64,000 nucleotides of DNA, taken from positions 1 to 64,000 of the forward strand of contig CAWEPK010000008.1 in assembly GCA_963810935.1 (NCBI GenBank). Reading direction: 5' to 3'. The number at the start of each line of letters is the position of its first letter. Positions within the stretch are counted from its first letter, which is position 1. This stretch comes from an uncultured delta proteobacterium (GTDB taxonomy: Bacteria; Desulfobacterota; Syntrophorhabdia; Syntrophorhabdales; WCHB1-27). The notes beneath the pieces were generated by a model. It worked only from the letters and a program-made list of their open reading frames with translations, was not told the origin of the DNA and made no database searches. The translations under genes and the position numbers were made by a program. Positions 11,262 through 34,105 of the stretch are shown piece after piece.

Positions 11262-11298
11262 GAAAGGCGAAAGACGAAACGCCTACAGGGAGGAAACA

Positions 11299-12042: not shown

Positions 12043-12046
12043 CCGG

Positions 12047-12733: not shown

Positions 12734-12735
12734 GT

Positions 12736-13788: not shown

Positions 13789-13829
13789 CAAGACGATAAA
13801 CATAGAACCGATAGGGTCATCCGCTCCCC

Positions 13830-14750: not shown

Positions 14751-14756
14751 ATCTTA

Positions 14757-15656: not shown

Positions 15657-15673
15657 CGCCTCCCTTCGGCCCT

Positions 15674-16704: not shown

Positions 16705-16765
16705 AACCTTGATCCTCCTTGCTGTATTCAAACGATCCGGCTACGCCAACCGTTTGGCGTATTCC

Positions 16766-17788
16766 CTAATTCCCCTTTACGGCGGCTGTCATCGCCTTGA
16801 TATGCGCTATGGGAGTAGAAGTGCTCAGGCCGCACGCGGGGGAGATTATATCCACATCGTCCCGAACCAGTTTCCTTGCCGTCTTTGCGATCTTGCCGGC
16901 AGGGCCGAATTCCAAAAGGTACGTGCTGACGTTCCCCATCGTTGTCAGTCGCGGGTATGTCTGCTTCAAGCCGCGCAGGCTCACCATGGCATCTGTACTG
17001 ACTGCATCGGCTCCTATCGCGGGGATAAGATGCGCGACAGCCTTCATGTCCCCGCAGATATGAACTATGACGGGCGTGTCTGCATCACGTACGGCTTGCA
17101 CGATCTTTTTCAGATACCTGACCGCGTACTCTTCAAAGGTCTTCGGCCCGAGTATCTCTCCTGAGGCGGTAGGGTCGGCTATGCAGACGGCGTCCGCTCC
17201 GCTCTCGACAAGCGACCTCGCATACGCGATCAGGAAGCGGCTTACGTGGTCGATTATCCGGTGCGAGTTTTCCCTGTCCTTCCTCAGCTCCTTAAGGAAC
17301 GCGGAAGGGTCCACCAGTGAGGCGGCGGCCGTGACCGGCCCCGTGATGTTCCCGATGACGGGGATATCCGGATATCTGCGGGACAGGATGCCCGCCGCCC
17401 GGACGACCGTACGAATGCGACTTGAATTCAGCAGATCGTTAATATCCTTGCACACCACTTTCGAGACGGAGGGAAATTTTTCTTTCGCGACCTTCGGCTC
17501 GCAGGTGAGGCTGCCGTAATCGATTTCGCTCCCCATGGCCTGCGCCTCGGCGGTGACGTCGAAAGGAACACCCAGGTTCTCGAAGCCCGTCTGCTCGTGT
17601 ACATCGTAGGCAAGCTCCGCCATGAGCGTGCTGTCAGTGTGGGCTTCGGGCAAACGGTGGCCCGTCTTTCTCATGATGTCCACCACGGCAGCGTTCATCA
17701 TGCCGCCGGCGCAGATTACGGGCGGCCGGTCCGGTGTTTTCTTCGCCAGGACCGCCATCAACCGCTCTTTGGGGTTCAATGCAGCCAT
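16766..17788 (-). CDS. MtaA/CmuA-type methylcobamide methyltransferase (UroD family)
   Basis: VHICG and SPACGL Zn ligands; GPVTAA. Confidence 0.85.
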   Translation of the reverse strand: MAALNPKERLMAVLAKKTPDRPPVICAGGMMNAAVVDIMRKTGHRLPEAHTDSTLMAELAYDVHEQTGFENLGVPFDVTAEAQAMGSEIDYGSLTCEPKVAKEKFPSVSKVVCKDINDLLNSSRIRTVVRAAGILSRRYPDIPVIGNITGPVTAAASLVDPSAFLKELRKDRENSHRIIDHVSRFLIAYARSLVESGADAVCIADPTASGEILGPKTFEEYAVRYLKKIVQAVRDADTPVIVHICGDMKAVAHLIPAIGADAVSTDAMVSLRGLKQTYPRLTTMGNVSTYLLEFGPAGKIAKTARKLVRDDVDIISPACGLSTSTPIAHIKAMTAAVKGN

Positions 17789-17790
17789 GA

Positions 17791-18858
17791 TTATTTTTTT
17801 GCCACCAGCGGCGAATGCGCCGGGTCTCCACCTATCTCCGCGGCCGTATCGAGCATGGCCCGTATGTTCTCGAAAGGGGTGTCGATAGGCAGGCTGCAGC
17901 CGGAACAGATCACATAGCCCTTGGGGTTGTCATGGGCCTGCCTGACGCATTGGATAGTCGCTTTGCGCACGTCTTTCGGCGTCCCCGCGTACATCACGCC
18001 GGAAGGGTCAACGTTCCCCGTAATGCGCACCCTGTCGCCCACCCGCTCCTTGCACTCGGAAAGGCTCGCGACGTTATCGATGCTGAGGCAGTCCGCCCCT
18101 GTGTCGGCCATCCCCTCCCAAATCTTGTCCGTCTTGCCGCATATATGGAGCGTGACCGGTTTGCCCCTGGAGTGTACATGGGCGATGAGCCGCTTAAGGT
18201 ACGGGAATGAATACTCCATGAAATGTTTGGGACTGACGATGGTGGTGGACGACATGGGCTCGGAAACGGTCGGCGTTAGCCCTATATCGATAAAGGCGTC
18301 GGCGTACCGGACGGCCGTCTCAAAAGAAACGGCGCACAGCTTGTGCACCGCTTCGGGGTCTCTGGCTAGGAGCCTTGACAGTTTCTCGACGCCGATCAGG
18401 AAAAACGCGTTCGTGAATGGACCGACGACGCCGCCCGAGCAAGACACTTCCGCCCCCAGTGCATCGATGACTATTTTGGCGGCTTCGAGGTGGGAAGGAA
18501 GGCGGCCGTCATGGTATGGGTCTGCCGGCTGAATGTCGTCTATCCCGGCGAGGTCGGTTATGGCGGGCGCTTCCAGGTCGGCCGTGTCGTCTACCGGATA
18601 GCAGACCTTTGCCCCCATGGCCTCCGCCTGGACGTAAAGGTCCGTAAAGGGCCTGACGCCGTCGTATGCGAACATGCGGTAAGCGGCGATGTGGGCTTGT
18701 GCGATCAGTTGTCCGTTGTTCCTGAACTCGGACACCTTACAGCCGATAACCCTTGCTGCGCCGTTCGCGATATTCGGGTTGCAAGGCAGGCGGTCTATCC
18801 TTTCCCCTTTGTTGTAAGCGATCATCCGCTCAAGCGAAGTTATACGGTCTCTATCCAT
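17791..18858 (-). CDS. Second UroD/MtaA-family methyltransferase
   Basis: GPFT, LHICG, GNVDP and CSGCSLP. Confidence 0.85.
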   Translation of the reverse strand: MDRDRITSLERMIAYNKGERIDRLPCNPNIANGAARVIGCKVSEFRNNGQLIAQAHIAAYRMFAYDGVRPFTDLYVQAEAMGAKVCYPVDDTADLEAPAITDLAGIDDIQPADPYHDGRLPSHLEAAKIVIDALGAEVSCSGGVVGPFTNAFFLIGVEKLSRLLARDPEAVHKLCAVSFETAVRYADAFIDIGLTPTVSEPMSSTTIVSPKHFMEYSFPYLKRLIAHVHSRGKPVTLHICGKTDKIWEGMADTGADCLSIDNVASLSECKERVGDRVRITGNVDPSGVMYAGTPKDVRKATIQCVRQAHDNPKGYVICSGCSLPIDTPFENIRAMLDTAAEIGGDPAHSPLVAKK

Positions 18859-19513
18859 TGTCCAAGCCTCCTGTCAGCTTACGGGCCAGCTTCGCCGCGA
18901 GCGATGCGTTTGCGGCATAGCCGTTCGCGCCTATCCGCTCAGCGAATCCTTTCGAGATGGGCCCGCCGCCGACCATCACCCTGACCCGGTCTTTCATGTT
19001 GCCTTTTTTCAGAAGCGCCACGACTTCTTTCATCCCGTTCATCGTAGTCGTCATCAGCGTGGAGAGGGCGATGATCCGTGCGTCCGTCTCTTTCGCCTTT
19101 TCGATAAACGCCCTGGGGGAAACGTCCCTCCCGAGATCGACGACATCGAAGCCTGATGTCTCCAGCATGATCTTCACGAGGTTCTTGCCTATGTCGTGGG
19201 TATCACCTTCAACCACGCCGATGACGACCTTTACCTTGGTCCCGCCGTCATCAACGGGCAGGTGCGACTTGAGGACATCGAGGCCGGCGTACATGGCGTC
19301 GGAGCAAAGCAAGAGCTCCGGTATAAAGTATTCCTCCGCTTCATAGAGCTTACCGGCCCTGTTCATTCCGTCGGATAGACCCTTGTTGATTGCCCGATAG
19401 GCGTCGAGTTTGCCATCTGCCACCGCTCTCGATATTCTCACGGTTTCTTCTTCATCCATATCGAGAACGGCGTCCGAAAGGGATTTATATAAACGTTCTT
19501 TTAGTATTGCCAT
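18851..19513 (-). CDS. Methyltransferase-cognate corrinoid protein
   Basis: GDTHDIGKNLV, STLMTTTM and MVGGGP B12-binding motifs. Confidence 0.92.
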   Translation of the reverse strand: MAILKERLYKSLSDAVLDMDEEETVRISRAVADGKLDAYRAINKGLSDGMNRAGKLYEAEEYFIPELLLCSDAMYAGLDVLKSHLPVDDGGTKVKVVIGVVEGDTHDIGKNLVKIMLETSGFDVVDLGRDVSPRAFIEKAKETDARIIALSTLMTTTMNGMKEVVALLKKGNMKDRVRVMVGGGPISKGFAERIGANGYAANASLAAKLARKLTGGLDNG

Positions 19514-19990: not shown

Positions 19991-20095
19991 ATGTTCAAGA
20001 TTTGCGCGTGAATTGAAACAGGGGCGCCGGGTGGCGCGCTTGGCTTCGCCTCCATACGTCGGGTAATGGAGCAGTCTCTCCTCGCGGTCGTTTAA
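19991..20095 (+). CDS. Putative selenocysteine leader peptide B (MFKICA-U-IETGAPGGALGFASIRRVMEQSLLAVV)
   Basis: SD AAAGGTG; ATG 19991; TGA 20009-20011; SECIS-like GCGCC-GGGT-GGCGC with the loop starting at +18; TAA 20093-20095. Confidence 0.65.
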
Positions 20096-20114: not shown

Positions 20115-20144
20115 GCGGCCGGCGCATGCCGGCCGTTGTTATTT
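20115..20144 (+). terminator. Attenuator-type terminator in the selD leader
   Basis: GCGGCCGGC-GCAT-GCCGGCCGT followed by TGTTATTT. Confidence 0.6.
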
Positions 20145-20191
20145 GTCCGTCTCAATATAGCAAGGGGCAAAATTCGTTAAAGGAGAGGCAC

Positions 20192-21217
20192 ATGGAAACA
20201 GCACTTACGCAGCACGCCCGTTTCGGGGGGTGCGGGGCGAAGATCGGCCCCGGCGACCTTTCGAACATACTCTGCGGGATCGACATCCCCGAGGACGCCA
20301 ACGTAATCGTCGGTCTCAAAGGCTTCGAGGACGCAGGCGTCTACCGCATCACCGATGAATTGGCCGTCGTCCAGACAGTCGATTTTTTCACGCCTGTCGT
20401 GAACGACCCGTACACGTTCGGCAGGATCGCGGCGGCCAATGCCCTTTCGGACATCTACGCAATGGGCGCGAATCCGGTGACTGCCCTCAACCTCGTTTGT
20501 TTCCCGCCAAAGAAGCTCGATATAAGCATACTGCGCGATATCCTGCGCGGGGGCATCGACAAGGTAAGGGAAGCGGGGGCGAGCCTGCTGGGCGGCCACA
20601 GCGTAGATGACGATGAGGTCAAGTACGGCCTGTCCGTGACGGGCCTTGTACATCCCGACAGGATCGTGAGGAACGAGGGCGCCGGGCCGGGCGACCTGCT
20701 CGTCCTCACGAAGCCGCTGGGTACGGGTATCCTCATAAGCGCCATGAAAGGAAATCAGGTGTCTCCGGAGACGGAGGCGCAGGTGTCGTCCGTCATGGCG
20801 ACGCTTAACAGGCAGGCATCCAAGGCGATGCTCGCAGCGGGCGCCCATGCTGCTACGGACGTGACGGGCTTCGGCCTTGCGGGCCATCTCAAGGAGATGA
20901 TAAAGGAGGACATCGGCGCGGAAATTGACGCCGCAATGCTGCCTTATTTTCCCGAGGCGGAGGGCCTTGCAGCCGCCGGGTTCCTCCCGAGCGGCTTCTA
21001 CAGGAACAGGGATTTTTACTCGCCGTCCGTGGAGTCGGAGGTGGACGGCTTCTTGTTCGACCTGATATTCGACCCCCAGTCATCGGGCGGGCTTCTCATC
21101 GCCCTCGGGGAGGGCGATATGGAGGCTTTCGACAGGGAGGCGAAAGGCCGCTCCGTGGATTACCGGGTGATAGGCCGCTTCACGGACGGGCCGAAAGGGA
21201 AGATACACGTCGCCTGA
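20192..21217 (+). CDS. selD: Selenide, water dikinase (selenophosphate synthetase), Cys form
   Basis: GGCGAKIG (TGC codon), QTVDFFTPVV, AANALSDIYAMG, TDVTGFGLAGHL and DPQSSGGLL. Confidence 0.95.
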   Translation: METALTQHARFGGCGAKIGPGDLSNILCGIDIPEDANVIVGLKGFEDAGVYRITDELAVVQTVDFFTPVVNDPYTFGRIAAANALSDIYAMGANPVTALNLVCFPPKKLDISILRDILRGGIDKVREAGASLLGGHSVDDDEVKYGLSVTGLVHPDRIVRNEGAGPGDLLVLTKPLGTGILISAMKGNQVSPETEAQVSSVMATLNRQASKAMLAAGAHAATDVTGFGLAGHLKEMIKEDIGAEIDAAMLPYFPEAEGLAAAGFLPSGFYRNRDFYSPSVESEVDGFLFDLIFDPQSSGGLLIALGEGDMEAFDREAKGRSVDYRVIGRFTDGPKGKIHVA

Positions 21218-21844: not shown

Positions 21845-21946
21845 ATGATGAAAATATACGGGATAATATTTGTTCCATTGAGCTGAGAAGCGAGCGGGAG
21901 GCCCGTGAGGTCTCCACTTCCGTCCGCTGCCGCTTCACCGCCCTGA
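21845..21946 (+). CDS. Putative selenocysteine leader peptide C (MMKIYGIIFVPLS-U-EASGRPVRSPLPSAAASPP)
   Basis: SD AGGA; TGA 21884-21886; then 10 nt and GGAGGCC-CGTGA-GGTCTCC; second TGA 21944-21946. Confidence 0.7.
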
Positions 21947-21960
21947 CCCTTCTTTTTTGG

Positions 21961-22019
21961 ACCTCTCGGGAAATCCGGGCGCGAAGATGTCGCGGCCGGA
22001 TTTTTTGTCTCCGGGAGGT
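21961..22019 (+). terminator. Terminator / SD-sequestering hairpin upstream of the double-cubane reductase gene
   Basis: AAATCCGG.GCGCGA-AGATG-TCGCG.GCCGGATTTTTT; the outer ACCTCTCGG pairs with CCGGGAGGT, which contains the SD. Confidence 0.7.
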
Positions 22020-22023
22020 TTAA

Positions 22024-23211
22024 ATGCCTGACAGCAATCAAATATATCCATATGCGGTCGAGCCGCTGATCGAGGACGACTACGCAGGCGAGCCGCCCGC
22101 CAAGCGCCTCCTTGCGTATCTTCAGAGCCGGCGCGAGGCCGGCTCTAAGATCGTGGGCATCTACTGCGGCTACGCGCCGGTAGAGATAATCCGCGCCCTC
22201 GGCCTCGTGCCCGCTTCGCTCTGCGCGTTCTCAAACGCGACGATAGAAGCTGCTGAGGCGGTGCTGCCCGCCAACCTTTGTCCCCTTATAAAATCGAGCT
22301 ACGGCTTTATCATGAAAGACGCCTGTCCTTTCTTTGCGGTCTCCGACGCGGTGGTGGCCGAGACGACGTGCGACGGCAAGAAGAAGATGTTCGAGCTGAT
22401 CGCAGACCGCAAGCCGATGCACGTCATGGACCTGCCGCAGGTGCCGGACGAGCCGGAGGCGCTCGACAACTGGACCACGATGATCCGCAAGCTTCAGAGG
22501 TTCCTCGAATCCGTGTTCGGCGGCAAGGCAACCGACGAACAGATAGAGTCTGCCATCCATGACACGAACGAGAAGGCCCGGCGCATGAATGAGATATTCG
22601 AATACGCGGCCCTCAACCCGCCGGTGATAGGGTGGCCCGAGCTTTATGACGCCCTTTTCCTGGGCCAGGGCGCATCGGGGGCCGACCTCGCGCCCATACT
22701 CGACGGGATGCTTGAGAAGCTCGAAAAACGAAAACGCGACGGTTACGTCTATGGGCCGAAAGGCGCGCCCAGGGTCATGGTGACGGGGTGTCCCGTAGGC
22801 GGTGATTCGCTAAAGGTGCTTACGGCGATAGAAGAGGCGGGAGGGGTAGTCGTCGCACTCGATTCATGCTCCGGCATGAAGCCCTACGCGGACTACATCG
22901 AAGAAGGCACGGGGGACCCCGTGCGCGCGATGGCTGCGCGATACCTGAAGGTCCCGTGCTCCTGCATGACGCCGAACAGGCGCCGGCTCACGGAGATTGA
23001 CAGGCTTATCGAAAAGTTCAGGCCGGACGCGGTCGTGGACGTAGTCCTCCAGGGGTGCCATTCGTACAACATAGAATCGATCAAGGTGGGTGAGAGGGTG
23101 CGGACGAACCACGGCCTGCCTTTTCTCACCGTAGTCACCGATTACTCACAGGGCGATATCGGGCAGATGCGGACGCGAATGGAGGCTCTTCTGGAAATGT
23201 GCAGGCAATGA
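22024..23211 (+). CDS. Double-cubane-cluster reductase (2-hydroxyacyl-CoA dehydratase D family)
   Basis: YCGYAP, LCPLIKSSYG, CPFF, ETTCDGKKKM, DSCSG, PCSCMTPN and GCHSY. Confidence 0.85.
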   Translation: MPDSNQIYPYAVEPLIEDDYAGEPPAKRLLAYLQSRREAGSKIVGIYCGYAPVEIIRALGLVPASLCAFSNATIEAAEAVLPANLCPLIKSSYGFIMKDACPFFAVSDAVVAETTCDGKKKMFELIADRKPMHVMDLPQVPDEPEALDNWTTMIRKLQRFLESVFGGKATDEQIESAIHDTNEKARRMNEIFEYAALNPPVIGWPELYDALFLGQGASGADLAPILDGMLEKLEKRKRDGYVYGPKGAPRVMVTGCPVGGDSLKVLTAIEEAGGVVVALDSCSGMKPYADYIEEGTGDPVRAMAARYLKVPCSCMTPNRRRLTEIDRLIEKFRPDAVVDVVLQGCHSYNIESIKVGERVRTNHGLPFLTVVTDYSQGDIGQMRTRMEALLEMCRQ

Positions 23212-24390
23212 AGCCCATCTATTTCGATAATGCGGCTACCTCGTGGCCCAAGCCGCCCGCTGTGATAGAGGCGATGGCGCAGGTTCAACGACGCGGTAGG
23301 GGGCAACCCCGGCCGCTCCGGCCACAGGCTTTCCATCGAGGCGGCCCGCGTAGTCTTCGAGGCGAGGGAGCTTGTGGCGCAGCTTATCGGCGCCCCCGAC
23401 CCGCTCTCTGTCGTTTTCACGAAGAACGCAACGGAGGCGCTCAACTGCGTCCTTCTCGGCCTGCTCAAACCGGGCGACCACGTTGTCACGACGTCCATCG
23501 AGCATAATTCGGTGATGCGGCCCCTGCGCTTTCTCGAAGGGCAGGGCGTAGAGCTTTCCATTGCGCGCTGCTCGCCTGCGGGAGAGCTGGACCCGGAAGA
23601 CGCAGCGGCCTGCATGAGAAAGAATACCCGCGCCGTTGTGGCGACCCACGCCTCCAACGTCACGGGCACATTGCTTCCCATAGAGGAGCTTGCGGAAATC
23701 GCGCACCGGTACGATGCGCTCCTGGTTGCGGACGCTTCCCAGACTGCGGGCTGCGTCCCGATAGACGTTGCCGCATCGGGCATCGACGTCCTCTGTTTTA
23801 CGGGTCACAAGTCCCTCCTAGGTCCGCAGGGGACGGGCGGCTTCTACGTGCGCAAAGGGGTCGAAGAACGCCTTCTCCCGCTCATGCGGGGCGGCACGGG
23901 AAGCGCCTCCGAATCGGAGGAGCAGCCTGAGTTTTTGCCGGACAGGTTCGAGTCGGGCACACCCAACACCATCGGCCTCGCGGGACTCGCCGCAGGCGTC
24001 CGTTTCGTGCTTGACGACGGGGTAGGGCGCATCCGGGAGAGGGAGATCGGCCTGACGCGGCAGTTTCTTGAAGGGGCCGGGGCTATCCTGGGCATAACCG
24101 TTTACGGGCCGCCGGAGGCGGACCGGCGCACAGCCGTCGTCTCCTTCAACCTGAAGGGCGGGAGTCCGTCGGAGCTTGCCTTCGACCTCGACGAGCGTTT
24201 CGCCGTCCTGTGCCGTCCGGGCCTGCATTGCGCCCCTGCCGCGCATCGCACCATAGGCACCTTCCCGCAAGGGGCCGTGCGGTTCAGCTTCGGATTCTAC
24301 ACGACTGCGGATGAGGTCCGCGCCGGGCTGGCCGCTATGGCGCAATTGAGCGCCGAACACTATGCTTCCAAAGGAGGAACTAATGTCTGA
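23208..24390 (+). CDS. Cysteine desulfurase/selenocysteine lyase-family (class V PLP) enzyme; apparent 1-nt insertion near 23280
   Basis: IYFDNAATSWPKP is out of frame with NPGRSGH...EHNSV, TGHKSLLGPQG and RPGLHCAP. Confidence 0.88.
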
Positions 24391-24988
24391 GCTGGTGAAT
24401 GCGAAAGGCCTTGCCTGCCCGGAACCCGTTATACTGGCAAAAAAGGCGCTCGATGCGCATGACGAGGTTACGGTGCTGGTCGATAATGAGATGTCGCTGG
24501 AGAACGTGCAGCGCCTGGCCTCATCTTCGGGATGCGCAGTCGAGACTATAGCAGAGGCGGGCGGGGTCTTCCGTCTCGAAATAAAAAAACAGCAGGGCAA
24601 AGCGACGCCGTGCGCTGCGTCGCCGGGACCCGCGCCTGTGCAGAGCAGCCAGGGGCCTACCATATTCGTTATCGCGTCGAATATCATGGGCTACGGTAAC
24701 GACGACCTGGGCGCGCTCCTGATGAAAGCGTTCATCCATACGGCCGTTGACCTGGAACGCTTACCCGACATGATGATCTTATACAACACGGGTGTTAAGC
24801 TGGCCGCGCCGGATTCAGGCGCGCTCGACGACCTGAAGGCGCTCGAAGAGAAAGGGGTGAAGATACTCGTCTGCGGCACGTGCGTCAATTTCTTTGACCT
24901 GACAGGCAAGATCGGCGCGGGGACCGTCTCCAATATGTACGACATAGCGGGCGCGCTATCGAGTGCGGGCAGAATCGTGAAGCCTTGA
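24383..24988 (+). CDS. yedF: Selenium-metabolism protein YedF (TusA/SirA plus DsrE-like domains)
   Basis: KGLACPEPVI, YNTGVKL, LVCGTC and VSNMYDI. Confidence 0.85.
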   Translation: MSELVNAKGLACPEPVILAKKALDAHDEVTVLVDNEMSLENVQRLASSSGCAVETIAEAGGVFRLEIKKQQGKATPCAASPGPAPVQSSQGPTIFVIASNIMGYGNDDLGALLMKAFIHTAVDLERLPDMMILYNTGVKLAAPDSGALDDLKALEEKGVKILVCGTCVNFFDLTGKIGAGTVSNMYDIAGALSSAGRIVKP

Positions 24989-25224
24989 AGGAAGAGCAGA
25001 AGCAGCGTTACCTGGTTGCCATGTTCGCTTCCGTCAGCATGGTGATGAAGGCGGAAAAGATACTCAAGGCGGCGGGTGTCCCCCACAAGATAATTCCCGT
25101 ACCCAGGAGCATCAGCTCTGACTGCGGGGTCTGCATCCGCTTACTGCCCGAAGACAGGGAAACCGTAGTTGAGGCGCTCGGGGCCGAGGTGCGCGTGAGC
25201 GAGATACGCGAGCTGGAGCGATGA
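24985..25224 (+). CDS. DUF3343-family small Se/S carrier-like protein
   Basis: IPVPRSISSDCG motif; coupled to yedF. Confidence 0.8.
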   Translation: MKEEQKQRYLVAMFASVSMVMKAEKILKAAGVPHKIIPVPRSISSDCGVCIRLLPEDRETVVEALGAEVRVSEIRELER

Positions 25225-25275: not shown

Positions 25276-25735
25276 ATGACGCTCGACCTTGTGCGCCGGG
25301 TGGCGCTCTCACCCCGTTTGTATATACCTGTACGGCTCGGCCTTGCCGTTCTTTTTATCTATGCGGGCGCGGTAAAGCTCGCTGACCCGAGGGCGTTTGC
25401 CCGCACCATCTCCCACTACGGCCTCGTACCCGAACCCCTGCTGCCCACCGTTGCAGTGGGGCTGCCGGTAATGAGAGCTGCTCGCCGGTATTGCGCTGTT
25501 GTTAAATCTGGTGCCCGGCCTGCACGCCGTATCCGTCCTTCTTTTGCTCTTTGCCGGCGTCCTCGGCTACGGTTACTTCACCAATATGGATATAGACTGC
25601 GGCTGCTTCGGACAGCAGGAGCTGGCGGAGCACAAAGGCCTCGTTTATGCTTTTTATCGCGACCTCGGGCTTCTCGCAACGGTCGCGTTTCTTCACTGGT
25701 CGCGCATTGCGCGCAGCAGACCCGTTTCAAAATAA
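25276..25735 (+). CDS. MauE/DoxX-family membrane protein; apparent 1-nt insertion near 25473
   Basis: The FIYAGAVKLADP...GLPV frame joins the ELLAGIALL...IDCGCFG frame. Confidence 0.8.
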
Positions 25736-25755
25736 CAGACTGAGGGAGGTTTAAA

Positions 25756-26268
25756 ATGACGTTGAAAAAGACGGTTGTTGCGGCCCTGGTTGTTGCGGGT
25801 ATATTTTGCTTCGCAGGGTCGGGTAAGGCCCTGGCCGCATGGGGAGACAAGGAACTGGAGACGGAAAAAACGGCGGTTGCCTTCCAGCGGGAGGTTGTAA
25901 GGGGCGCATACAAGGTCGTGACGACCGAAGAATTGAAAGGCTGGATCGACCAGAAGAAGGAGATGCTGATCGTCGATACGATGCCCGCCGACAACTTCAA
26001 GAAAGAGCATATACCGGGGGCCGTCAACTTCCCCCTGCCTATCCCCGAAATGAAAGAGATGGACGCAAAGACGAAGGCCGATCTCGAGAAAGTCCTGGGG
26101 CAGAACAAAGACCGGCTGATTGTTTTCTATTGCGGCTTCACGAAATGCACGCGGAGTCATAACGGTGCGATGTGGGCGGTGAAGCTGGGCTACAAGAACG
26201 TTTACAGGCAGCCCGGAGGCATCAAGGCGTGGGATGAGGCGGGGTATCCAGTGGAGAAGTCTAAATAG
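25756..26268 (+). CDS. Exported rhodanese-like sulfur/selenium transferase
   Basis: Signal peptide; HIPGA, FYCGFTKCTRSH and GGIKAW. Confidence 0.88.
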   Translation: MTLKKTVVAALVVAGIFCFAGSGKALAAWGDKELETEKTAVAFQREVVRGAYKVVTTEELKGWIDQKKEMLIVDTMPADNFKKEHIPGAVNFPLPIPEMKEMDAKTKADLEKVLGQNKDRLIVFYCGFTKCTRSHNGAMWAVKLGYKNVYRQPGGIKAWDEAGYPVEKSK

Positions 26269-26281
26269 GCGGAAAGCCCCC

Positions 26282-26968
26282 TCAAGGGTACCATTTCACG
26301 AGCTTCTCCGGGTGGACGCCCGCCAGGTAAAGCACCATGATCGTCCAATTCCGCAGTGTGCATCCGGCAATGCCTTCTTTTTGCCAGCGGCGGGCGGAGG
26401 TCTGCACCTTTTTATCGATTATGCAGATCTTCCCGCCGCGTTTTTTTACCCTGCGCATCAGGTCTACATCTTCCATGATCGGCATGTCGCCGTAGGCGCC
26501 GATGTCCGTAAAGTAGTCGCGGGCTATAAAGATAGCCTGGTCCCCGTAAGGTACGCGCGTCAGGCGCGAGCGCATGCTCGATATCTGCTCGATGACGCGG
26601 AACACGCATCGGCTGTCGCTTATCCCAAGGTCGAACGCCCCGGCCGCGAATTGCCCGTCCGCCATTACCGACGCGACTTTTTCGAGTCCGCCGGCAGGGA
26701 GCGCCGTATCCACGTGGAGGAATAGAAGCACGTCGCCATGCGCGGCAGCGGCCCCGGCGTTCATCTGGGCGGCGCGTCCTTTCGCGGAGACAATGCCGTG
26801 CGCACCGCCCCTGATAGCGCTCACGGTCTCGCCTCCAGGGCTTCCGTCCACCACGATGATCTCTACCGTCCCTTCCGGCGTTTGCGCAGCCTGGGCGGCA
26901 AGGCGGCCTATCGCGTCATTGACTATCGCCTCTTCATGGAAGACGGGGATAATGACGGAGATGCTCAC
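26282..26968 (-). CDS. GT2 glycosyltransferase, rSAM/selenodomain-associated transferase 2 type
   Basis: ISVIIPV, VVDGSP, GRAAQMNAGA, LFLHVD, PYGDQAIF and TSARRW. Confidence 0.85.
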   Translation of the reverse strand: MSISVIIPVFHEEAIVNDAIGRLAAQAAQTPEGTVEIIVVDGSPGGETVSAIRGGAHGIVSAKGRAAQMNAGAAAAHGDVLLFLHVDTALPAGGLEKVASVMADGQFAAGAFDLGISDSRCVFRVIEQISSMRSRLTRVPYGDQAIFIARDYFTDIGAYGDMPIMEDVDLMRRVKKRGGKICIIDKKVQTSARRWQKEGIAGCTLRNWTIMVLYLAGVHPEKLVKWYP

Positions 26969-27645
26969 GGCTTGCCGAGCCTCTCCCTTACGAAATCGAG
27001 GGACGCGAGGACGCCGGACGGCAGATGTTTGTTGCGTTCCCGGAAGGCAAGAAGGTCGTCGTAGACATCGATGTCTCTCCAGACCGGCAGGATATGGACG
27101 CAGAGGCCGTGCCTTTTGAGCACGGCTATTGTCGTGTCGAATACGCCCGGTGCCCCCCATTCTACCCCTGAGAAAGGCGCATCGATCAGGGTCGCTGGCC
27201 GGAAGCCTATGAGGTAGTATCCACCGTCCGCTGCGGGGCCGATGACAACGTCCCGCGTCCGCAATCCCTCGAATGCCTCTTTCAGTAAGACAGATGGGAG
27301 GTCTGGGAAGTCGCTGCCTATGAGGACGGCCCGGGCGCAGCCCGAAAGGGCCTGCGCGAGCGCGGAGAACATCCTCTGTCCGAGGTCGGCCCCGGCCTGG
27401 GGCAGACACGTTATATCATCGCCGAGCCAAGCTGCGACGTCCTCTCGCGCGTCCGGCGGATGGAAGCGGACGAGCGGGGGGTAGCCCGCCTTGCGGGCGG
27501 TTGCCAGGATATCGGAGACACAGGCGCCATAAAAGGCCGCGGCATCGTCGTCGCCTATCTTTCGTGCAAGCCTCGTTTTGACCCGGCCTTTTTCGGGGAG
27601 CCTGACAAAAACGATCAGCCGTTCATCAGATGGCTGGTTTATCAT
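26965..27645 (-). CDS. DUF2064 transferase, rSAM/selenodomain-associated transferase 1 type
   Basis: GRVKTRL, DLGQRM, IGSDFP, GPAADGGYYLIG and DID. Confidence 0.85.
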   Translation of the reverse strand: MINQPSDERLIVFVRLPEKGRVKTRLARKIGDDDAAAFYGACVSDILATARKAGYPPLVRFHPPDAREDVAAWLGDDITCLPQAGADLGQRMFSALAQALSGCARAVLIGSDFPDLPSVLLKEAFEGLRTRDVVIGPAADGGYYLIGFRPATLIDAPFSGVEWGAPGVFDTTIAVLKRHGLCVHILPVWRDIDVYDDLLAFRERNKHLPSGVLASLDFVRERLGKP

Positions 27646-27651
27646 CGGCCC

Positions 27652-28609
27652 TCACGCTGTCTGGCCCTGGCACGAGCTCGCCCGCGCCCGCCGTGCACCC
27701 GTAGCAGTGGTCGCCGACGACGATGCGCCGGGCGGCAAGCGCGCCCGTATCGAAATCGGAGATGTGGTATGGAGCGCCGTGGTTTATCGTCAGGCCGAGG
27801 ACCTGATTGAAGTCGCAGTCGTAGAGGCTGCCGTCCCAGCCTACCGAGACGGTCGATTTGCACATCACGCCGCTCAAACTCGCCGGGTTGAAGGCAGCGA
27901 TAAGACTCTTCATATAATCCTCGTAATTGCCCGATGCGAGAAGATACTCAAGGTAGCGTCCTATGGGCATGTTCGTTATGCAGAAGAGATGGTTGAAGCT
28001 TACCCCGTGACGCTCGGCGAGGACCTGCCTGAAAAGCGCCTCAAGCCCTGCCTGCGATCCGGGGAGATATGCGCCTGCCGGGTTGTGCACGAGATCGAGG
28101 ACCAGTCCGCTGCCCTCCCGCCCGTAGCCGAGGGCGTTGAGACGGGCAATGACTCCGATCAGACCGGTGAAGACGCCTTCACCCCTCTGGCGCTCGGTCA
28201 GCCTGGGATCGACGTGGGGCAGGGAAAGGACGACCTCGATCCCGGTGGCTGCGTAAAGATCGATGAACGGCTCGTATCTCTTTTCCAGAAGGACGACGCC
28301 GTTGCTTCGCACGAGGACGCGCCGCCCGAGGGCGGCACATGCCTGCAAAAAAGGCCGCAGGCCGGGATGCAACTCCGGGCTGCCCCCCGTTATATCGACT
28401 ACGGGGATGTCCTGGCTGCGCACCACTTCGAGGCACTGCTCCATCACCCTATCCGGCATCACTTCCGACCGTTCGGGACCTGCCTGCACGTGGCAATGCC
28501 TGCATTGGAGGTTGCACCGGTAGCCGACGTTCACCTGGAGGACGCCGATGCCCGAGGCCATGATCGGCACCCGCGCCTTGTCCTCGAACGATGGTGAGAC
28601 TTTCGACAT
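27652..28609 (-). CDS. arsS: ArsS-like radical SAM/Cys-rich protein, Cys form; apparent 1-nt insertion near 27680
   Basis: CNLQCRHCH, DITGGSPEL and YDCDFNQ; removing one base restores the C-terminus HCYGCTAGAGSSCQG. Confidence 0.85.
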
Positions 28610-28617
28610 CCTCACTT

Positions 28618-28950
28618 TTACATCTCCTTCTTCCTGACTATCTTCCTCATCTGGGTAGAGTGCGCAAGGACTATACCGGCAGTCATGGCGGCGCCCACGT
28701 GGACGGCCTCCATCATCTCTTCCCTGGATATGCCCAGAGACAGGCAGTGGTTCGTGTACGCGTCGATGCAGTAGGGGCATTTCTGCGTAGTCGCGACTGC
28801 CAGGGCTATAAGGCTCTTTTCTTTCTCGGTCAGGCGTCCCGCTTTCATTGCCTCGCCGTAATAATCAAAATACTTCTCCCCGAGCGCCGGCGCGTACTCA
28901 CCGATATTCGGAAAGTCTTCAAGGTCCTTCGTCTCGTAGTATTCTCCCAT
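28618..28950 (-). CDS. AhpD/CMD-like peroxidase associated with ArsS
   Basis: EKSLIALAVA..QKCPYCIDAY. Confidence 0.85.
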   Translation of the reverse strand: MGEYYETKDLEDFPNIGEYAPALGEKYFDYYGEAMKAGRLTEKEKSLIALAVATTQKCPYCIDAYTNHCLSLGISREEMMEAVHVGAAMTAGIVLAHSTQMRKIVRKKEM

Positions 28951-28964
28951 AAATATGCCTCCTT

Positions 28965-29402
28965 TCACGATATTTTTGAAGTACCGCCCCATCGCGCAAC
29001 TGCCGCGCCGGGAATCCACACGAGGTTTGCCGTACCCAGAAGGCAGAGCAAAATCATATCGATCTGCCATAGGGAGAGGAAGCCAAGATGAAAGCCGTCC
29101 CTGAAAAGGGCGGCGGGCACGATGAGCAGGGCTTGTGTGGCCGGTGTATATCCTGCAAAGAGTATGGCGGCGGCAAGCAGCTCCAGGAGCAGGAAGACGA
29201 CGAGCCGGATCTGCCGCCGGGCAGCGCCGAAGGCTGTTGCGAAGACAGCCGTCAAAAGGGGTATCGCGTGCCCGGTTGTCAGGCGCATCTCCAGCCATAT
29301 GAACCGATTAAGGATGAGGGCCAGGCAGAGACCCGCAACCATGCCGGCAAGGGCGGCTTTTATATAGTTGCGGACCGTTCCTGGCTGACAGTTATCGGGC
29401 AA
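28965..29402 (-). CDS. Hypothetical integral membrane protein
   Basis: About four hydrophobic segments; sits within the operon. Confidence 0.6.
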   Translation of the reverse strand: MPDNCQPGTVRNYIKAALAGMVAGLCLALILNRFIWLEMRLTTGHAIPLLTAVFATAFGAARRQIRLVVFLLLELLAAAILFAGYTPATQALLIVPAALFRDGFHLGFLSLWQIDMILLCLLGTANLVWIPGAAVARWGGTSKIS

Positions 29403-29420
29403 AAGTCTTCCCTCCCCTGC

Positions 29421-30062
29421 CTATCTTGCGGCCTTGAAGGTAATGATTACGAGCGTGCCGTCAGGCGGAAGCACTTCCCTGTTGCCCATGAGGGAAACTT
29501 CTTTCCGCGACTCGATGGCCCCGTAGGTATACGTCGCGTTGCTAGTTATGCCGACCGGGCAACTGTCCAGGCACATGAGGCAGCCTGTCTTCATGTCCAT
29601 CGCTGCCTGGAGGTTCCCACCGAAACGGATAACGAGCGGCTTGCCGCTGCTGTCCTTGATCGCCTCGTCGATGCGGTAGACCTTCGGCGCGCCTTTCCAC
29701 GTCACGAAGACGTCGAGCCTGTCCCCCTGGACGTGGGTCTTCTCTTTGTTGTCCCACGTCACGTTGTTCCCCGGCGTCAGGCCGAGCTTCACGAGGGCGT
29801 CGTAAAAGGGCTTCGGTTCCGCAAAGGCGGCAAAGACCGATTTGCCCCCATTCGACCCTCCCTTGAAGACTACCCCGTGCCGGGTCGTCTGAACGAGGTA
29901 CTTTCCGTTGACCTGGGCGAGGACGGAGACGCTACGGGCTTTCATATCGATGACGAGCGGGTTGTTTGGCGTGGGGCCTGTCTCCTGTGAGAACGCGGGT
30001 ATCGCCGTAAACGCCGCGAGCAGGGCGACGGCCAGGGCCCATACGAAAAAGTGTTTCTTCAT
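29421..30062 (-). CDS. YdjY-family exported protein
   Basis: Signal peptide; TRHGVVFKGGSNG and GCLMCLDSCPVGITSN. Confidence 0.75.
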   Translation of the reverse strand: MKKHFFVWALAVALLAAFTAIPAFSQETGPTPNNPLVIDMKARSVSVLAQVNGKYLVQTTRHGVVFKGGSNGGKSVFAAFAEPKPFYDALVKLGLTPGNNVTWDNKEKTHVQGDRLDVFVTWKGAPKVYRIDEAIKDSSGKPLVIRFGGNLQAAMDMKTGCLMCLDSCPVGITSNATYTYGAIESRKEVSLMGNREVLPPDGTLVIITFKAAR

Positions 30063-30117
30063 ACTTGTTCCTCCTGGTGACTTGGTTTTGTCTTTTTGTC
30101 GGGTATCTGCACGGCTC

Positions 30118-31977
30118 TCATACAAGGTCGTCCTTTCCGTGCTTTGCCTTGTAGCGCCTGTAGAGCAGGGGCAGCACCGAGACGAGGACGATAAGGACGA
30201 GGCCGATGATAAACGTGAGGGAGACCTTGCCGCGCGCAAGGTCGAGGAGAGAGCTGGAAAAAACGATAAACGCGATGCAGGCGGGCAACATGCAGAAAAA
30301 GGTGGCGATTGCATATTGGCGGAAGCCGATGCTGGTCAGCCCGAATGCATAGTTGAGGAGGTTGAACGGAAAAATCGGGACCAGGCGCGTGAAGGCGACG
30401 ACCTTCCATCCGTGTTTCTCCACCCCCTCGTCGAGCCTCTTCCACCTGGGACTACTGAGGTGCTGCGCCACCCATTCGCGCGCGAGGTAGCGGGAGACGA
30501 GGAAGGCGACGCAGGCGCCCGCCGTAGCGCCGATTATCGCATAAATGACGCCCCAGAACGGCCCGAAGATGATGCCTCCGACGACAGTGATGGGCGTCCC
30601 CGGCAGGAAAAGGGCGGGGGCTACCGCGTAGATGATTACATAAATGACGGGCGCGAGGGCGCCATACCCTGCTATCAGGTTGCGGAGGGTTTGCTGGTCC
30701 AGGTATCGGGAGAGGCCGGCGGTCTTTACTACTGCAATGGCTGCCGCCACAAAGAGCACGAACAAAAGGAGCTTTGCCATGCCGCCTTTCTTCTGCGGCT
30801 CCTTACCCGTGAAGGTGCGCTCCCTGGAGACCGCGGCGGGTACGTTCTCCTTGAACCATTTCTTCAGCCTGAGCCGCTTCCAATAGGTGAGGGGAGGCTT
30901 TGCTACCTTCGCTCTGCCGTCGGGATCGGGCCCGTCATCCCAGAGGATATCGAGGATATGCGCAGCAGGGGCGAGCTTCGAGAGCATATTTGCGCAGCCC
31001 GCGCAGTAAGTGATGACTTTTTTTCCGACGGCTTCGGTCCGTCGCCGCCTGCCCCAGACCGCCGCAAGCTCGGGAGCAAGGGCGCCGACCGCCCCGCCTT
31101 CGCCGCAGCAAAAGGTCCGGCTGCCGGTGTGCTCCATCTCCATGATTGCCCGGCCTTTGTTCCCGATCAGCTTTCGGACCGACCTGTGCATCTCCTCATC
31201 GAACCGCACTGCACACGGGTCGTGCACGGTGACTGCCTCTCCGGTCAGCCCGGCGCGCCCCCCGTCGCCGCAGTCTTCGGCGAGCACTTCATATAGGCTC
31301 CGGATCGAAAGACCCGTGCCGTAGCGGACGAACATCCTATAGCAGTTCGGGCAAGCGACGATGACGCGCGTAACGCCATGCGCGGCGAGGTAGCCCCTCA
31401 TCTCCGCGAACATGGCGTTGAAATGGTCCTCTCTGCCGAGGTCGTGAGAGGGTTTCATACAGCAATCGAGCACTATGCCGATGGATGGGAGCTTTTCTTT
31501 CAGGCGCTTGTAGACGAGCTTGACCTTTTCGGAGCGTGTGCCGGCGAGCGTGCAGCCGGGAAAGAAGACCGTATCGCAGCCTGCCGGGAGCGCATAATAC
31601 GAATACTTGCGGGAAGTGCCGCGCCTTTCGTATCCCTTCAGGACGGCGTGCTCCGGATAGTCGCCTCTACCCTGCCTCACGGCCTCTCTGCGCATCTCCA
31701 AAAAGAGGCGCGCCGGGTCGATCTTCGCCGGGCAGACCGCGGTGCAGAGGCCGCAGAGGCTGCATTCGAAGGGCAGGGCCAGGTCCTCTTTCCGCAAGGC
31801 GGGGTCGTACCGGTCCGCTATCTCTTTGGGTTTGCCGTGTTTCTTGAGGAAGGCGCACTCTTTCCGGCAGAGGTCGCATTCAATACAGGCGGTGGAGACC
31901 AGGCCCAGCTCTTCCTGCATTGTCGCGCTAAGCCCGGTTGTTTTGTCCGGGGAGCGCACTTTCGGCTTTGCGGCCAT
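30118..31977 (-). CDS. Fe-S/CCG-domain oxidoreductase fused to a TVP38/VTT (DedA-like) membrane domain
   Basis: CIECDLC, CSLCGLCTAVCP, FFPGC, HDPC and CCGEGG; C-terminal RLVPIFPFNLLNYAFG. Confidence 0.85.
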   Translation of the reverse strand: MAAKPKVRSPDKTTGLSATMQEELGLVSTACIECDLCRKECAFLKKHGKPKEIADRYDPALRKEDLALPFECSLCGLCTAVCPAKIDPARLFLEMRREAVRQGRGDYPEHAVLKGYERRGTSRKYSYYALPAGCDTVFFPGCTLAGTRSEKVKLVYKRLKEKLPSIGIVLDCCMKPSHDLGREDHFNAMFAEMRGYLAAHGVTRVIVACPNCYRMFVRYGTGLSIRSLYEVLAEDCGDGGRAGLTGEAVTVHDPCAVRFDEEMHRSVRKLIGNKGRAIMEMEHTGSRTFCCGEGGAVGALAPELAAVWGRRRRTEAVGKKVITYCAGCANMLSKLAPAAHILDILWDDGPDPDGRAKVAKPPLTYWKRLRLKKWFKENVPAAVSRERTFTGKEPQKKGGMAKLLLFVLFVAAAIAVVKTAGLSRYLDQQTLRNLIAGYGALAPVIYVIIYAVAPALFLPGTPITVVGGIIFGPFWGVIYAIIGATAGACVAFLVSRYLAREWVAQHLSSPRWKRLDEGVEKHGWKVVAFTRLVPIFPFNLLNYAFGLTSIGFRQYAIATFFCMLPACIAFIVFSSSLLDLARGKVSLTFIIGLVLIVLVSVLPLLYRRYKAKHGKDDLV

Positions 31978-32119
31978 TCCATCACCCCTGTTCTTTAGCT
32001 TACAGGCCGCCCGTACGCGCTTCCGTTCAGCACGGGCACGCCGCCGTTCTATTGTCTTTCTCGATTACCTGTTTTTGCCTTCCGACCTTCGACTTCCCGG
32101 CCGTAGGCTATGGACGGCC

Positions 32120-32215
32120 CTATCGGCGCCGGGCGGGGAAGGTGGAGGGGCTCATTGAAGGTCGCACGGACCTCCACGCAATCGATCAGATCGACATTTT
32201 GCTTAGATAGAGCAC
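32120..32215 (-). CDS. Putative selenocysteine leader peptide D (MLYLSKMSI-U-SIAWRSVRPSMSPSTFPARRR)
   Basis: SD GGAGG; GTG 32215; TGA 32188-32186; then 10 nt and GGAGGTC-CGTGC-GACCTTC; TAG 32122-32120. Confidence 0.7.
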
Positions 32216-32372
32216 TCTATGAAACCTCCATTGCCATCAAAGTATAACTAGGTTATTAGTATCATACTGCGGTGGAAGAATCAAGGGAAGGCTGCGCAGG
32301 ATAGGCTCATGTGCCTTTAGCGACTGTGCGAGGTTTGTAATTAGATGCGCCCGGCGCGCGGCGATTTTTTAA

Positions 32373-32401
32373 TTGACATGACGGGTAAAGGGGTTTAAGT
32401 T
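32373..32401 (+). promoter_or_regulatory. sigma70 promoter for the porin leader
   Basis: TTGACA-N17-TAAGTT. Confidence 0.65.
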
Positions 32402-32433
32402 TAAGAAAATTTGGGTAGGAAGGTGTGTGCGCA

Positions 32434-32517
32434 ATGGAAGACGACCCTGGCGGTCATATACAACTCGGTTGGAGCGGTGGACATGCTGCAGCTTCCGGGT
32501 GTCGTCGGACCCTCTGA
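32434..32517 (+). CDS. Putative leader peptide MEDDPGGHIQLGWSGGHAAASGCRRTL
   Basis: SD AGGAAGGT; first 22 nt identical to the mgtA leader. Confidence 0.65.
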   Translation: MEDDPGGHIQLGWSGGHAAASGCRRTL

Positions 32518-32725
32518 GAGTTCCGACCACTCCCGGTCCGGATAGCGTCTCCTCCGGGAGAGGATCGTATCATGTATTCCCCAAACCACTCTTCTGACTG
32601 GCTCCAGCCATAGAAACAAAATATGAATTTGCTGGTATCAGCGATCAACCTGCGGGCAGCATGCCGCTTATCGGCGTGCCGTTCAAGTCTGTGAGATATG
32701 CCGTCCGCCCGCAACAGAAGGAGAC

Positions 32726-34105
32726 GTGGAAGTGCGATTCTGCATTCGCCGGAAGACAGGCTTGTTCATTCTGGCCCTGGGCGCCCTCGCGGCGCTGGCG
32801 GCTCCCGGCCTCGTGCGCGCCGCCGACCCCCAGTCCTCCCTTCCCCCCTGGTTCCCCCAGCTCTTAGGCGCACAGGTAAACGGGGTCTACCAGAACTCCC
32901 CTTCCTTCCATAGCCCGTACACGGGAGACAAGAGCTTCATCTTCGATCATAGCTTCAAGCAACAGTTGACCCATGTCTACGGCCTCTATTTAGGCTCCCA
33001 GATAACACCTTCACTCCAGGCATACGGTGACTTCGAGATGTTTCGGGGGTCGGGCATAAGCAACGGCATTGGTTTGGGCGGTTTCAGTAATGCGGACGTC
33101 ATAAGGGCAGGGCCTGCCAATTTAGGCCAGGAGCCCTACCTTGCCCGCCTCTATGCCAGATACGTCATCCCCTTATCGAATGCCGTGACGGACCCGGTAG
33201 AGAGGGGCATGGACCAGATACCGGGTAGCCAGGCTGCGGACCGCATAGAGATAAAGGCAGGCAAGCTCGCCCCTACGGACGACTTCGACCAGAACCGCTA
33301 TGCCAATAACGGCCGCACGCAGTTCATGAACTACGACTTTTTATTTAATACGGCCTGGGACTATGCATCCGATACAAGGGGATACTCCATAGGCTTCTCC
33401 GCCGCTCTTGTCCATCCCACGTGGAGGCTTATCTTAGGAAGCTACCAGGAGCCTACATCCAGAAACGGCATGAACCTGGACAATAATATCTCCAAGGCCA
33501 GAGGGGACCAGATGGAGCTTGACCTGGCGCACTGGGAGAAGGGCCCCGTAGTCCGCCTTTTAGCCTTCAGGAACGAAGGGAGGATGGGCGACTACAGGGA
33601 CGCCATCGCCTTAGGTGCATTAACAGGTAACGTACCCGACACCACCCTCAACGGGCGGCCCGGCCACGTCAAGTACGGCTTCGGCTTAAACATAGAGCAG
33701 CCCCTTGCCAATGACGGGGACACGGGCATCTTTGCAAGGTTCGGCTGGGCCAACGGGAATAACTCCAACTGGTCCTATACCGAATCCGACAGGCACGCAA
33801 GCACAGGCGTCCAGATAAGCGGCAAGAACTGGGGCAGGCAGGAGGACCAGGCAGGTCTGGCCTTCGGCCTGAACGGCATCACGTCCTCCCATCAGCACTA
33901 CCTCCAGCAGGGAGGCATAGGCATGCTCGTAGGGGACGGGACGCTGAACTACGGCCTGGAGCAGGTGACGGAGGCCTACTACAGGATACAGGTAGGCAGG
34001 TACGTGCAGATAAGCCCCGACTTCCAGTACATCTGGAACCCTGCCTACAACAAAGACAGGGGGCCGGTGCAGGTCTACGGGATGAGGATGAGGGTGTACT
34101 ACTAA
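32726..34105 (+). CDS. OprB-family outer-membrane porin (MnoP-like divalent-cation porin subgroup)
   Basis: Signal peptide; FDQNRYA...TQFMN...AWDYASDTRGY, EAYY and SPDFQYIWNPAYNKDRGP. Confidence 0.8.
   Translation: MEVRFCIRRKTGLFILALGALAALAAPGLVRAADPQSSLPPWFPQLLGAQVNGVYQNSPSFHSPYTGDKSFIFDHSFKQQLTHVYGLYLGSQITPSLQAYGDFEMFRGSGISNGIGLGGFSNADVIRAGPANLGQEPYLARLYARYVIPLSNAVTDPVERGMDQIPGSQAADRIEIKAGKLAPTDDFDQNRYANNGRTQFMNYDFLFNTAWDYASDTRGYSIGFSAALVHPTWRLILGSYQEPTSRNGMNLDNNISKARGDQMELDLAHWEKGPVVRLLAFRNEGRMGDYRDAIALGALTGNVPDTTLNGRPGHVKYGFGLNIEQPLANDGDTGIFARFGWANGNNSNWSYTESDRHASTGVQISGKNWGRQEDQAGLAFGLNGITSSHQHYLQQGGIGMLVGDGTLNYGLEQVTEAYYRIQVGRYVQISPDFQYIWNPAYNKDRGPVQVYGMRMRVYY

Follow-up and report, generated by a model that had tools for sequence, protein, structure and literature searches.

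A seven-gene operon that carries an arsenosugar-type cassette lies on the minus strand of a 64-kb stretch of DNA from an uncultured delta proteobacterium (the window), and we find that it probably handles selenium rather than arsenic. Specifically, we read positions 32215-26282 (-) as one operon of a selenium regulon, in which a selenium-linked ArsS cassette and an envelope module of the YdjXY type stand together under a leader that decodes selenocysteine (Sec), here called leader D. To this complete reading we give a little less than an even chance. The 64 kb of the window, which are the visible part of the genome, have a G+C content of 59%, and their nearest protein relatives bear the names Syntrophorhabdus or Deltaproteobacteria.

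The seven genes run along the minus strand from 31977 to 26282 with gaps of ~50 nt or less, or with overlaps, and form one tightly packed operon; the unit including leader D spans 32215-26282 (-). An initial annotation of this DNA had listed the same genes, and its list was correct by searches with hidden Markov models (HMMs) of the translated open reading frames (ORFs). The first gene (30118-31977, -) encodes a 619-aa fusion protein (CCG-VTT), recognized by HMM, in which a 4Fe-4S dicluster and two CCG (HdrD/GlpC-like) domains are joined to a C-terminal VTT/DedA domain. The dicluster/CCG part is cytoplasmic, and the VTT/DedA part is the membrane domain (Pfam VTT, 98 bits). The top NCBIfam model for this protein, NF045663 'diclust_near_Sec', scored 223.6 bits, under its cut-off of 530 as the protein has just one half of the family's architecture, and its nearest relatives are 77-70% identical. 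The second gene encodes a YdjY-domain protein with a signal-peptide-like N terminus (29421-30065, -; NF040466, 153 bits). It is followed by an ORF with a TTG start for a small hydrophobic membrane protein of 145 aa (28965-29402, -), which belongs to no known family, is found at the same position in a related locus (L003), and matched only unnamed clusters below 0.9 in a protein atlas.

The four remaining genes make up the cassette. They encode an AhpD-like CxxC protein (CPYC; 28618-28962, -; TIGR04169, 150.8 bits, cut-off 120), the radical S-adenosylmethionine (SAM) protein ArsS (27626-28612, -; TIGR04167, 383 bits, cut-off 300), a TIGR04282/DUF2064 protein resembling nucleotide-diphospho-sugar transferases (26965-27645, -; 183.2 bits, cut-off 134; PDB 3cgx, E 2.5e-39), and, as the last gene of the operon, a TIGR04283 family-2 glycosyltransferase (GT2) (26282-26962, -; 235 bits, cut-off 182). 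ArsS carries the domains PF04055 and PF12345, and its radical-SAM motif CxxxCxxC is present as CNLQCRHC. Among solved structures, none was close for YdjY (top E 0.0077) or for ArsS (E 3.9e-07, over the radical-SAM core only).

Leader D (32120-32215, -) is a 31-codon ORF with a GTG start at 32215, an internal ATG at 32197, and a TAG stop at 32122-32120; a GGAGG (32229-32225) lies 9 nt 5' of the GTG. Codon 10 is an in-frame TGA (32186-32188, -), a candidate selenocysteine codon, so that the predicted peptide would read VLYLSKMSI-U-SIAWRSVRPSMSPSTFPARRR, with 21 further codons open past the UGA. Starting 9 nt past the TGA is a hairpin (32156-32176, -) that resembles a selenocysteine insertion sequence (SECIS), with an 8-bp stem, TGGAGGTC / GACCTTCA, and the loop CGTGC. 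Bacterial SECIS elements are recognized by an in-frame UGA that a hairpin follows at ~10 nt, with G/U in its apical loop, and by an open frame beyond. Leader D has the in-frame UGA, a 9-nt spacer, the 8-bp stem, the loop CGUGC, and a frame that stays open.

A selenium island ends on its right-hand side with the leader D operon. The other units of the island encode an ATP-binding cassette (ABC) transporter with an Mlp-type corrinoid/MtaA cluster (13830-19513, -), selD (20126-21217), a double-cubane protein with SclA, YedF, and a Se/S-carrier (22024-25224), and a MauE-like protein with a rhodanese (25276-26268), the rhodanese gene itself (25756-26268) being convergent with the TIGR04283 gene that ends the operon. 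According to a passage of PMC10418091, Mlp-type corrinoid/MtaA clusters are linked to methyl-selenide use, and the presence of such a cluster nearby suggests that methylated selenium species are available. Each of three other units of the island is likewise preceded by a short ORF that has an in-frame TGA near its start and a hairpin. Leader A (~19816-19691, -) precedes the corrinoid/MtaA/ABC unit, leader B (19991-20095, +) precedes selD and has a terminator at 20115-20136, and leader C (21845-21946, +) precedes the double-cubane/SclA/YedF unit and is followed by a hairpin with a T-run at ~21974-22005. The hairpin of leader D is close to that of leader C (GGAGGCC-CGTGA-GGTCTCC), and a covariance model of leader C matched leader D weakly (16.8 bits, E 0.48). 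In leader C, ACCUCUCGGG (~21959-21970, just before the terminator) can pair with UCCGGGAGGU (22009-22018, +), which contains the Shine-Dalgarno sequence of the double-cubane gene; a similar anti-Shine-Dalgarno helix appears in the fold of a homologous leader from locus L004.

Is the operon tied to selenium in other genomes as well? Alignment of 14 CCG-VTT proteins led to 62 related loci (L numbers) on contigs chosen as one genome per species, and tblastn with the window proteins was applied within ~10 kb of each CCG-VTT gene. YdjY was found in 14 of the 62 loci, a rhodanese in 20, ArsS in 8, and TIGR04282 or TIGR04283 in 9; these counts are lower bounds because many loci are short contigs. SelD was found in 7 loci, YedF in 6, SclA in 3, and the double-cubane protein in 6, and 13 of the 62 loci had at least one of these four. 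For a single-copy gene in a 20-kb neighborhood, chance would give well under 1 locus in 62 if a genome of a few Mb is assumed. SelD is the Sec form in six of its seven loci, and the seventh match covers the C-terminal half only.

The clearest case of selenium linkage is L020, a Syntrophales metagenome-assembled genome (positions 8924-18609), in which CCG-VTT, YdjY, SclA, YedF, rhodanese, TIGR04169, a Sec-containing ArsS, and a Sec-type SelD form an array on one strand. Beside this array stands a divergent gene for a 'selenium metabolism-associated LysR' regulator (298 bits, cut-off 250). No Sec leader was observed at L020. These data suggest that the same genes are controlled by a protein regulator or by a leader, depending on the lineage. 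In L003, the order past a leader of the leader C type is rhodanese, an ORF, CCG-VTT, two YdjY genes, the membrane protein, AhpD-like, ArsS (405.8 bits), and YedF; a second genome therefore has this cluster downstream of a Sec leader, though one of a type different from D. Pfam searches of 56 ORFs from five ArsS-bearing loci (L002, L003, L018, L023, and L031) returned rhodaneses, B12-binding radical-SAM proteins, GT2s, DUF2064, DUF3047, a class-V aminotransferase, and TusA. In the Geobacteraceae/Desulfobacterales loci L023 (17194-18621) and L031 (17851-20695), B12-binding radical-SAM genes, which may encode methylases, follow ArsS / GT2 / DUF2064.

The C terminus of ArsS was compared across the eight homologues. 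SSC ends the motif in L001, L002, L003, and L005 and SGC in L023 and L031; L018 diverges before the motif, and L020 has FTU, its sequence reading ...GFTUNG, with TGA where the others have Cys. In the window, the last ~9 residues of ArsS are out of frame from ~27680, and the CTAGxGSS(C/U) motif occurs only in the other frame past that point, as ...AGASSC followed by a stop at 27654-27652. Apparent single-base frameshifts were seen at this ArsS C terminus (~27680, -), at the N terminus of SclA (~23290, +), and probably in the MauE-like gene (25276-25743, +), which suggests assembly indel errors rather than pseudogenes. The same kind of error could also affect the leader frames.

Could the cassette nevertheless be a genuine organoarsenical one? 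ArsS would then adenosylate dimethylarsenite made through an arsM elsewhere, the Sec leader would confine expression to times of Sec availability, and the tie to selenium would arise because enzymes of such chemistry often use selenocysteine. We treat this arsenic reading, with its Sec-assisted organometallic chemistry and distant arsM, as a serious rival, and we judge it rather improbable. Several observations favor it and weigh against a role in selenium. All four cassette proteins score above the curated cut-offs of arsenosugar-named families, with the window ArsS scoring as a TIGR04167 equivalog that has both the radical-SAM and the DUF3641 parts. The only ArsS activity known to have been demonstrated is the adenosylation of dimethylarsenite (PMC13598754). 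An arsM may lie elsewhere in the genome, beyond the 64 kb seen. Finally, the selenium association could be due to selenoprotein members of these families, such as the U-containing ArsS of L020, and not to a selenium substrate; the AhpD-like protein of the window also matches, weakly (25 bits), the AhpD domain of an 'arsenite methyltransferase/AhpD selenoprotein' family.

Against the arsenic reading, the scan of 67 window ORFs (7+35+25 translations, with smaller ORFs outside this set) gave no match to ArsM, ArsR, Acr3, ArsB, or ArsC; the initial annotation had likewise seen no arsM or arsR. The sole SAM methyltransferase of the window (42354-42986) is 10 kb away, stands beside a glycosyltransferase, and matches no ArsM model. 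Likewise, no SAM methyltransferase, ArsR, Acr3, ArsB, or ArsC was present in the 56 ORFs of the five ArsS-bearing loci or in 12 ORFs of L020, for a total of 68 ORFs from six related loci. The seven operon proteins are all Cys forms with no in-frame UGA, and the co-directional L020 array includes selD, sclA, and yedF. The neighboring genes in the five ArsS-bearing loci encode rhodaneses and Se/S carriers, with no arsenic resistance genes among them. Compared with the arsenosugar cassette, then, the window operon shares its four protein families but has no arsenic gene nearby, has an ArsS C terminus that is frameshifted in the assembly, and is joined to a YdjY/VTT-CCG envelope module, a selenium island, and a UGA-containing leader. 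The selenium link put forward in the initial annotation gained support from the L020 array, the Sec leader of L003, the 13/62 loci, and the lack of nearby arsenic genes. A further point in its favor is that the top family for the CCG part received its 'near Sec' name from NCBI curators.

A different possibility is that the operon handles sulfur, for example by trafficking persulfide or thiosulfate and making a thiosugar or thio-adenosyl compound, and that its proximity to selenium genes comes from shared carriers. Rhodaneses, TusA/YedF-type carriers, and cysteine-desulfurase-type enzymes dominate the neighborhoods, E. coli ynjE near ydjXYZ is annotated as a sulfurtransferase, and a passage of PMC10418091 divides type I Mlp clusters into selenium and sulfur clades. 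However, the Sec-codon leader, the linkage to selD, and the selenium-associated LysR are specific to selenium, and sulfur is abundant for such anaerobes, which would hardly need a dedicated system in the style of those for trace elements. We consider the sulfur reading highly improbable.

If selenium is indeed the element handled, the operon would probably work as follows. The envelope module, consisting of a periplasmic YdjY, the VTT/DedA domain with its HdrD-like Fe-S disulfide-reductase domain, and the small membrane protein, would take up and reduce chalcogen species. ArsS would then transfer a 5'-deoxyadenosyl group to a selenium center instead of to dimethylarsenite, with methylated selenide and carrier-bound perselenide as candidate acceptors, and the two transferases would convert the adenosyl adduct into a ribosyl, selenosugar-like product. 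DedA proteins are linked to selenite uptake in a review (PMC11422209).

We then asked how firmly leader D can be assigned to a class of Sec leaders. A scan of ~152 kb of intergenic DNA of the 62 loci, on both strands, gave 11 ORFs with a UGA and a hairpin, of which 5 are real: four homologues of leader C and one selenoprotein C terminus. The leader C homologues come from the four closest genomes, L001 (11594-11698, -), L002 (13049-13150, -), L003 (8467-8568, +), and L004 (150-251, -), and share a peptide pattern around U; the family has no Rfam match. The 7-bp hairpin of this family is paired in 35/35 cells, 4/7 pairs are changed on both sides, and the covariation was reached by 16/500 column shuffles, with slid registers pairing at 39-74%. 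Past the UGA the frame is preserved, with an indel of 3 nt and stop codons that align, and a hairpin with a T-run or terminator lies downstream in four of the five members. L002 also contains a paralogue of the leader C promoter and ORF start (6590-6711, +; peptide MRRITGTFIPPETALFCRVRSKS) that lacks the TGA and the hairpin and lies 5' of an operon for GT2 / DUF3047 / a DUF2064-ArsS fusion / CCG-VTT; it may be a decayed or Sec-independent leader.

The initial annotation had proposed that leader D works as a switch, in which the 3' arm of the SECIS-like hairpin pairs with a downstream complement, in the same design as leader C. Both 8-mers are present at exactly the positions given, the 3' arm CGACCTTC at 32164-32157 and its perfect 8-nt complement GAAGGTCG at 32083-32090 (-). 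A perfect complement of at least 8 nt to the 3' arm occurred in 20/2000 and in 13/1000 dinucleotide-preserving shuffles of the downstream RNA, and one to any part of the hairpin in 59/2000; the complement is therefore uncommon but not decisive. In the minimum-energy fold, the partner of GAAGGTCG (32090-32083) is not the 3' arm but CCACCTTCC (32145-32137). Blocking of the 5' arm was the one condition in which the alternative pairing appeared, the minimum-energy fold then joining CGACCUUC and GAAGGUCG; otherwise GAAGGUCG joins CCACCUUCC inside the leader ORF. Folds of leader D were constrained by a ribosome at the UGA, on the hairpin, or at the stop, and the accessibility of the Shine-Dalgarno sequence and AUG of the first gene was 0.37-0.41 in all four states. 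We rejected a translational switch in leader D as unsupported on this ground. No intrinsic terminator was found on the minus strand at 31900-32750.

The likeness to the leader C design held only weakly. Leader C of the window has a 6-nt complement, found in 79/1000 shuffles, but the arrangement is not kept in its homologues: L001, L003, and L004 have only 4-nt chance matches, and L002 has 7 nt, ~140 nt downstream, as in 94/1000 shuffles. A 3' arm with a downstream complement was consequently rejected as a conserved design. Classical antitermination in leaders B and C was also rejected, as the terminator is in the minimum-energy fold in all three states of all six sequences, a result that counts against our main reading. 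With no effect on the ribosome-binding site, no conserved complement, and a terminator in every state for B and C, the proposed switch is unsupported.

These results bring up the alternative that leader D is no Sec sensor but a 9-codon upstream ORF that ends at the UGA, followed by an ordinary hairpin and a chance complement, with the operon regulated in some other way. A number of findings point in this direction and away from a Sec-decoding leader. Blastn of the 283-nt leader D region against the 62 loci gave no homologue, and blastn-short against the window returned only leader D itself. A motif scan of the 450 nt 5' of CCG-VTT in 59 of the 62 loci (three were dropped because their upstream DNA was too short) gave five weak candidates, none of them D-like. 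Because no homologue was detectable, the hairpin is without covariation support of its own, and by these comparisons leader D is a singleton. The region folds no more stably than its shuffles (z = -0.88; 33/200 shuffles fold as well), and Rfam gave no family at gathering scores and, over the leader regions, none at E<=10 beyond obvious chance matches. Two further points weigh on the main reading: a simple scan found no promoter-like site, and the 64 kb show selD and a tRNA-Val but no tRNA-Sec, selA, or selB. In favor of the alternative, leader D also has no terminator, constrained folds show no change at the ribosome-binding site, leader C homologues do not keep the complement, a LysR regulator serves in relatives, and the assembly has indel errors. 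On the other side, ORFs of this kind are rare, as the intergenic scan indicates, and the stem and loop of leader D are a near-copy of those of leader C, whose hairpin covaries. The frame also stays open for 21 codons, and both the position and the orientation of leader D are as expected for a leader, with three similar ones present in the island. Taken together, we consider the non-sensor alternative unlikely, if still of appreciable weight.

If leader D does sense Sec, its effect would be to tie expression of the operon to decoding of the UGA as selenocysteine, that is, to the supply of Sec-tRNA(Sec). Through coupling of translation and transcription, Rho-type polarity would leave the operon expressed as long as Sec is decoded and silent in selenium-starved cells. 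A candidate site for Rho loading, judged by composition, is a C-rich, G-poor tract of 60 nt (32096-32155, -) with 27 C and 16 G. Most of it (32155-32120) is inside the part of the leader ORF that would be translated only upon decoding of the TGA, and the remainder is 3' of the stop. We measured the C-minus-G skew in the 60 nt past the hairpin against all 60-nt windows of the source on both strands. Leader D falls in the top 4.6%, leader C of the window in the top 1.9%, the L003 leader in the top 1.8%, and the L004 leader in the top 3.4%; leader A has an extreme C-over-G tract slightly farther on. No such skew was present in leader B, L001, or L002, and its absence from leader B and L002 speaks against a Rho-based mechanism.

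The lack of a terminator and of a predicted switch at the ribosome-binding site, together with a C-rich tract that lies mostly in the UGA-dependent stretch, therefore lead us to lean slightly toward Rho-type coupling. The opposite polarity, with the operon on under selenium starvation as in trp-type attenuators, is nearly as probable. It is favored by the rise of selenium-scavenging genes under selenium depletion in Methanococcus, described in PMC11097638.

How does leader D compare with known regulatory elements? A SECIS-like element in the E. coli selAB leader was reportedly described by Thanbichler and Bock in 2002. In Treponema primitia fdhF(Sec), selenium acts on transcription via UGA/SECIS translation and translational coupling, as stated in part of PMC3892789. 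In both systems, as proposed here, how much downstream message or protein is made depends on decoding or binding of a UGA/SECIS element, but the element is inside a selenoprotein gene or is a nontranslated SelB site, whereas leader D is a dedicated short ORF and the genes behind it have no Sec codon. The trp and his attenuators and the mycobacterial polycysteine short ORFs (described in part of bioRxiv 10.1101/834739) likewise have a short upstream ORF in which a codon reports the supply of one amino acid; in leader D the sensed codon would be a UGA accompanied by a SECIS-like hairpin, no terminator was found, and modeling yielded no antiterminator for B and C, which do have terminators. A search of open-access papers gave no description of such UGA-containing leader ORFs, and neither 'leader' nor 'attenuat' occurs in the text of a 2026 review on the selenoproteomes of prokaryotes. 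If real, these upstream ORFs would be the selenocysteine counterpart of amino-acid attenuators.

The envelope module has a partial parallel in E. coli K-12, where ydjX, ydjY, ydjZ, ynjA, ynjBCD, and ynjE are contiguous and where, to our knowledge, the YdjX/Y/Z-YnjA module has no assigned function. The initial annotation had drawn a parallel to the entire ydjXYZ-ynj locus. YdjY of the window and E. coli YdjY (b1751) share 58% identity over 185 aa; for the VTT part, identity is 34% with YdjX and 32% with YdjZ. The two loci are also alike in that an AhpD-like gene follows and a rhodanese is adjacent, here as a convergent neighbor outside the operon. However, the AhpD-like protein is of a different subfamily, with a weak match to YnjA (E 7e-4 over 47 aa), the window has one VTT copy that is fused to an Fe-S/CCG reductase domain, no YnjBCD transporter is in the operon, and the E. 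coli locus is without ArsS and the two transferases. With similarity strong for YdjY and VTT and weak for YnjA, the parallel is therefore limited to the YdjX/YdjY core. For bacteria so far apart, such a YdjY identity is out of the ordinary, which hints at gene transfer or at strong constraint.

Selenium is already known to enter a sugar-like product in bacteria: the selenoneine (sen) pathway is a bacterial route to a C-Se bonded sugar, with a selenosugar intermediate, and needs a SelD-type enzyme. Its enzymes are unrelated to those of the cassette, and none were seen here, no search for sen genes having been made. If the selenium reading is true, the widely annotated 'arsenosugar' cassette would carry the wrong name in many anaerobes, radical-SAM adenosylation would act on selenium as well as on arsenic, and a conserved envelope module would be a candidate selenium uptake system. 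As of 2024, no dedicated selenium transporter had been identified, according to a passage of PMC11097638. In its boldest form, leaders A to D would be a new class of ribosome-mediated Sec-tRNA sensors that set the expression of a selenium regulon, the ArsS-type enzyme would make a C-Se bond, yielding a 5'-deoxyadenosyl-selenium compound on the way to a selenosugar-like metabolite, and YdjY/VTT-HdrD would be a dedicated selenium importer-reductase; we hold this combination to be speculative and on the whole doubtful. If true, it would give a function to the E. coli ydjXYZ-ynj locus as well.

Two minor observations concern the DNA upstream of leader D. The 510-nt spacer that separates it from the next gene contains a plus-strand hairpin with a T-run (32346-32370), with no obvious gene to terminate. 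That next gene, divergent from leader D, encodes an OprB-family porin (32726-34105, +), for which tblastn listed no homologues among the 62 related loci.

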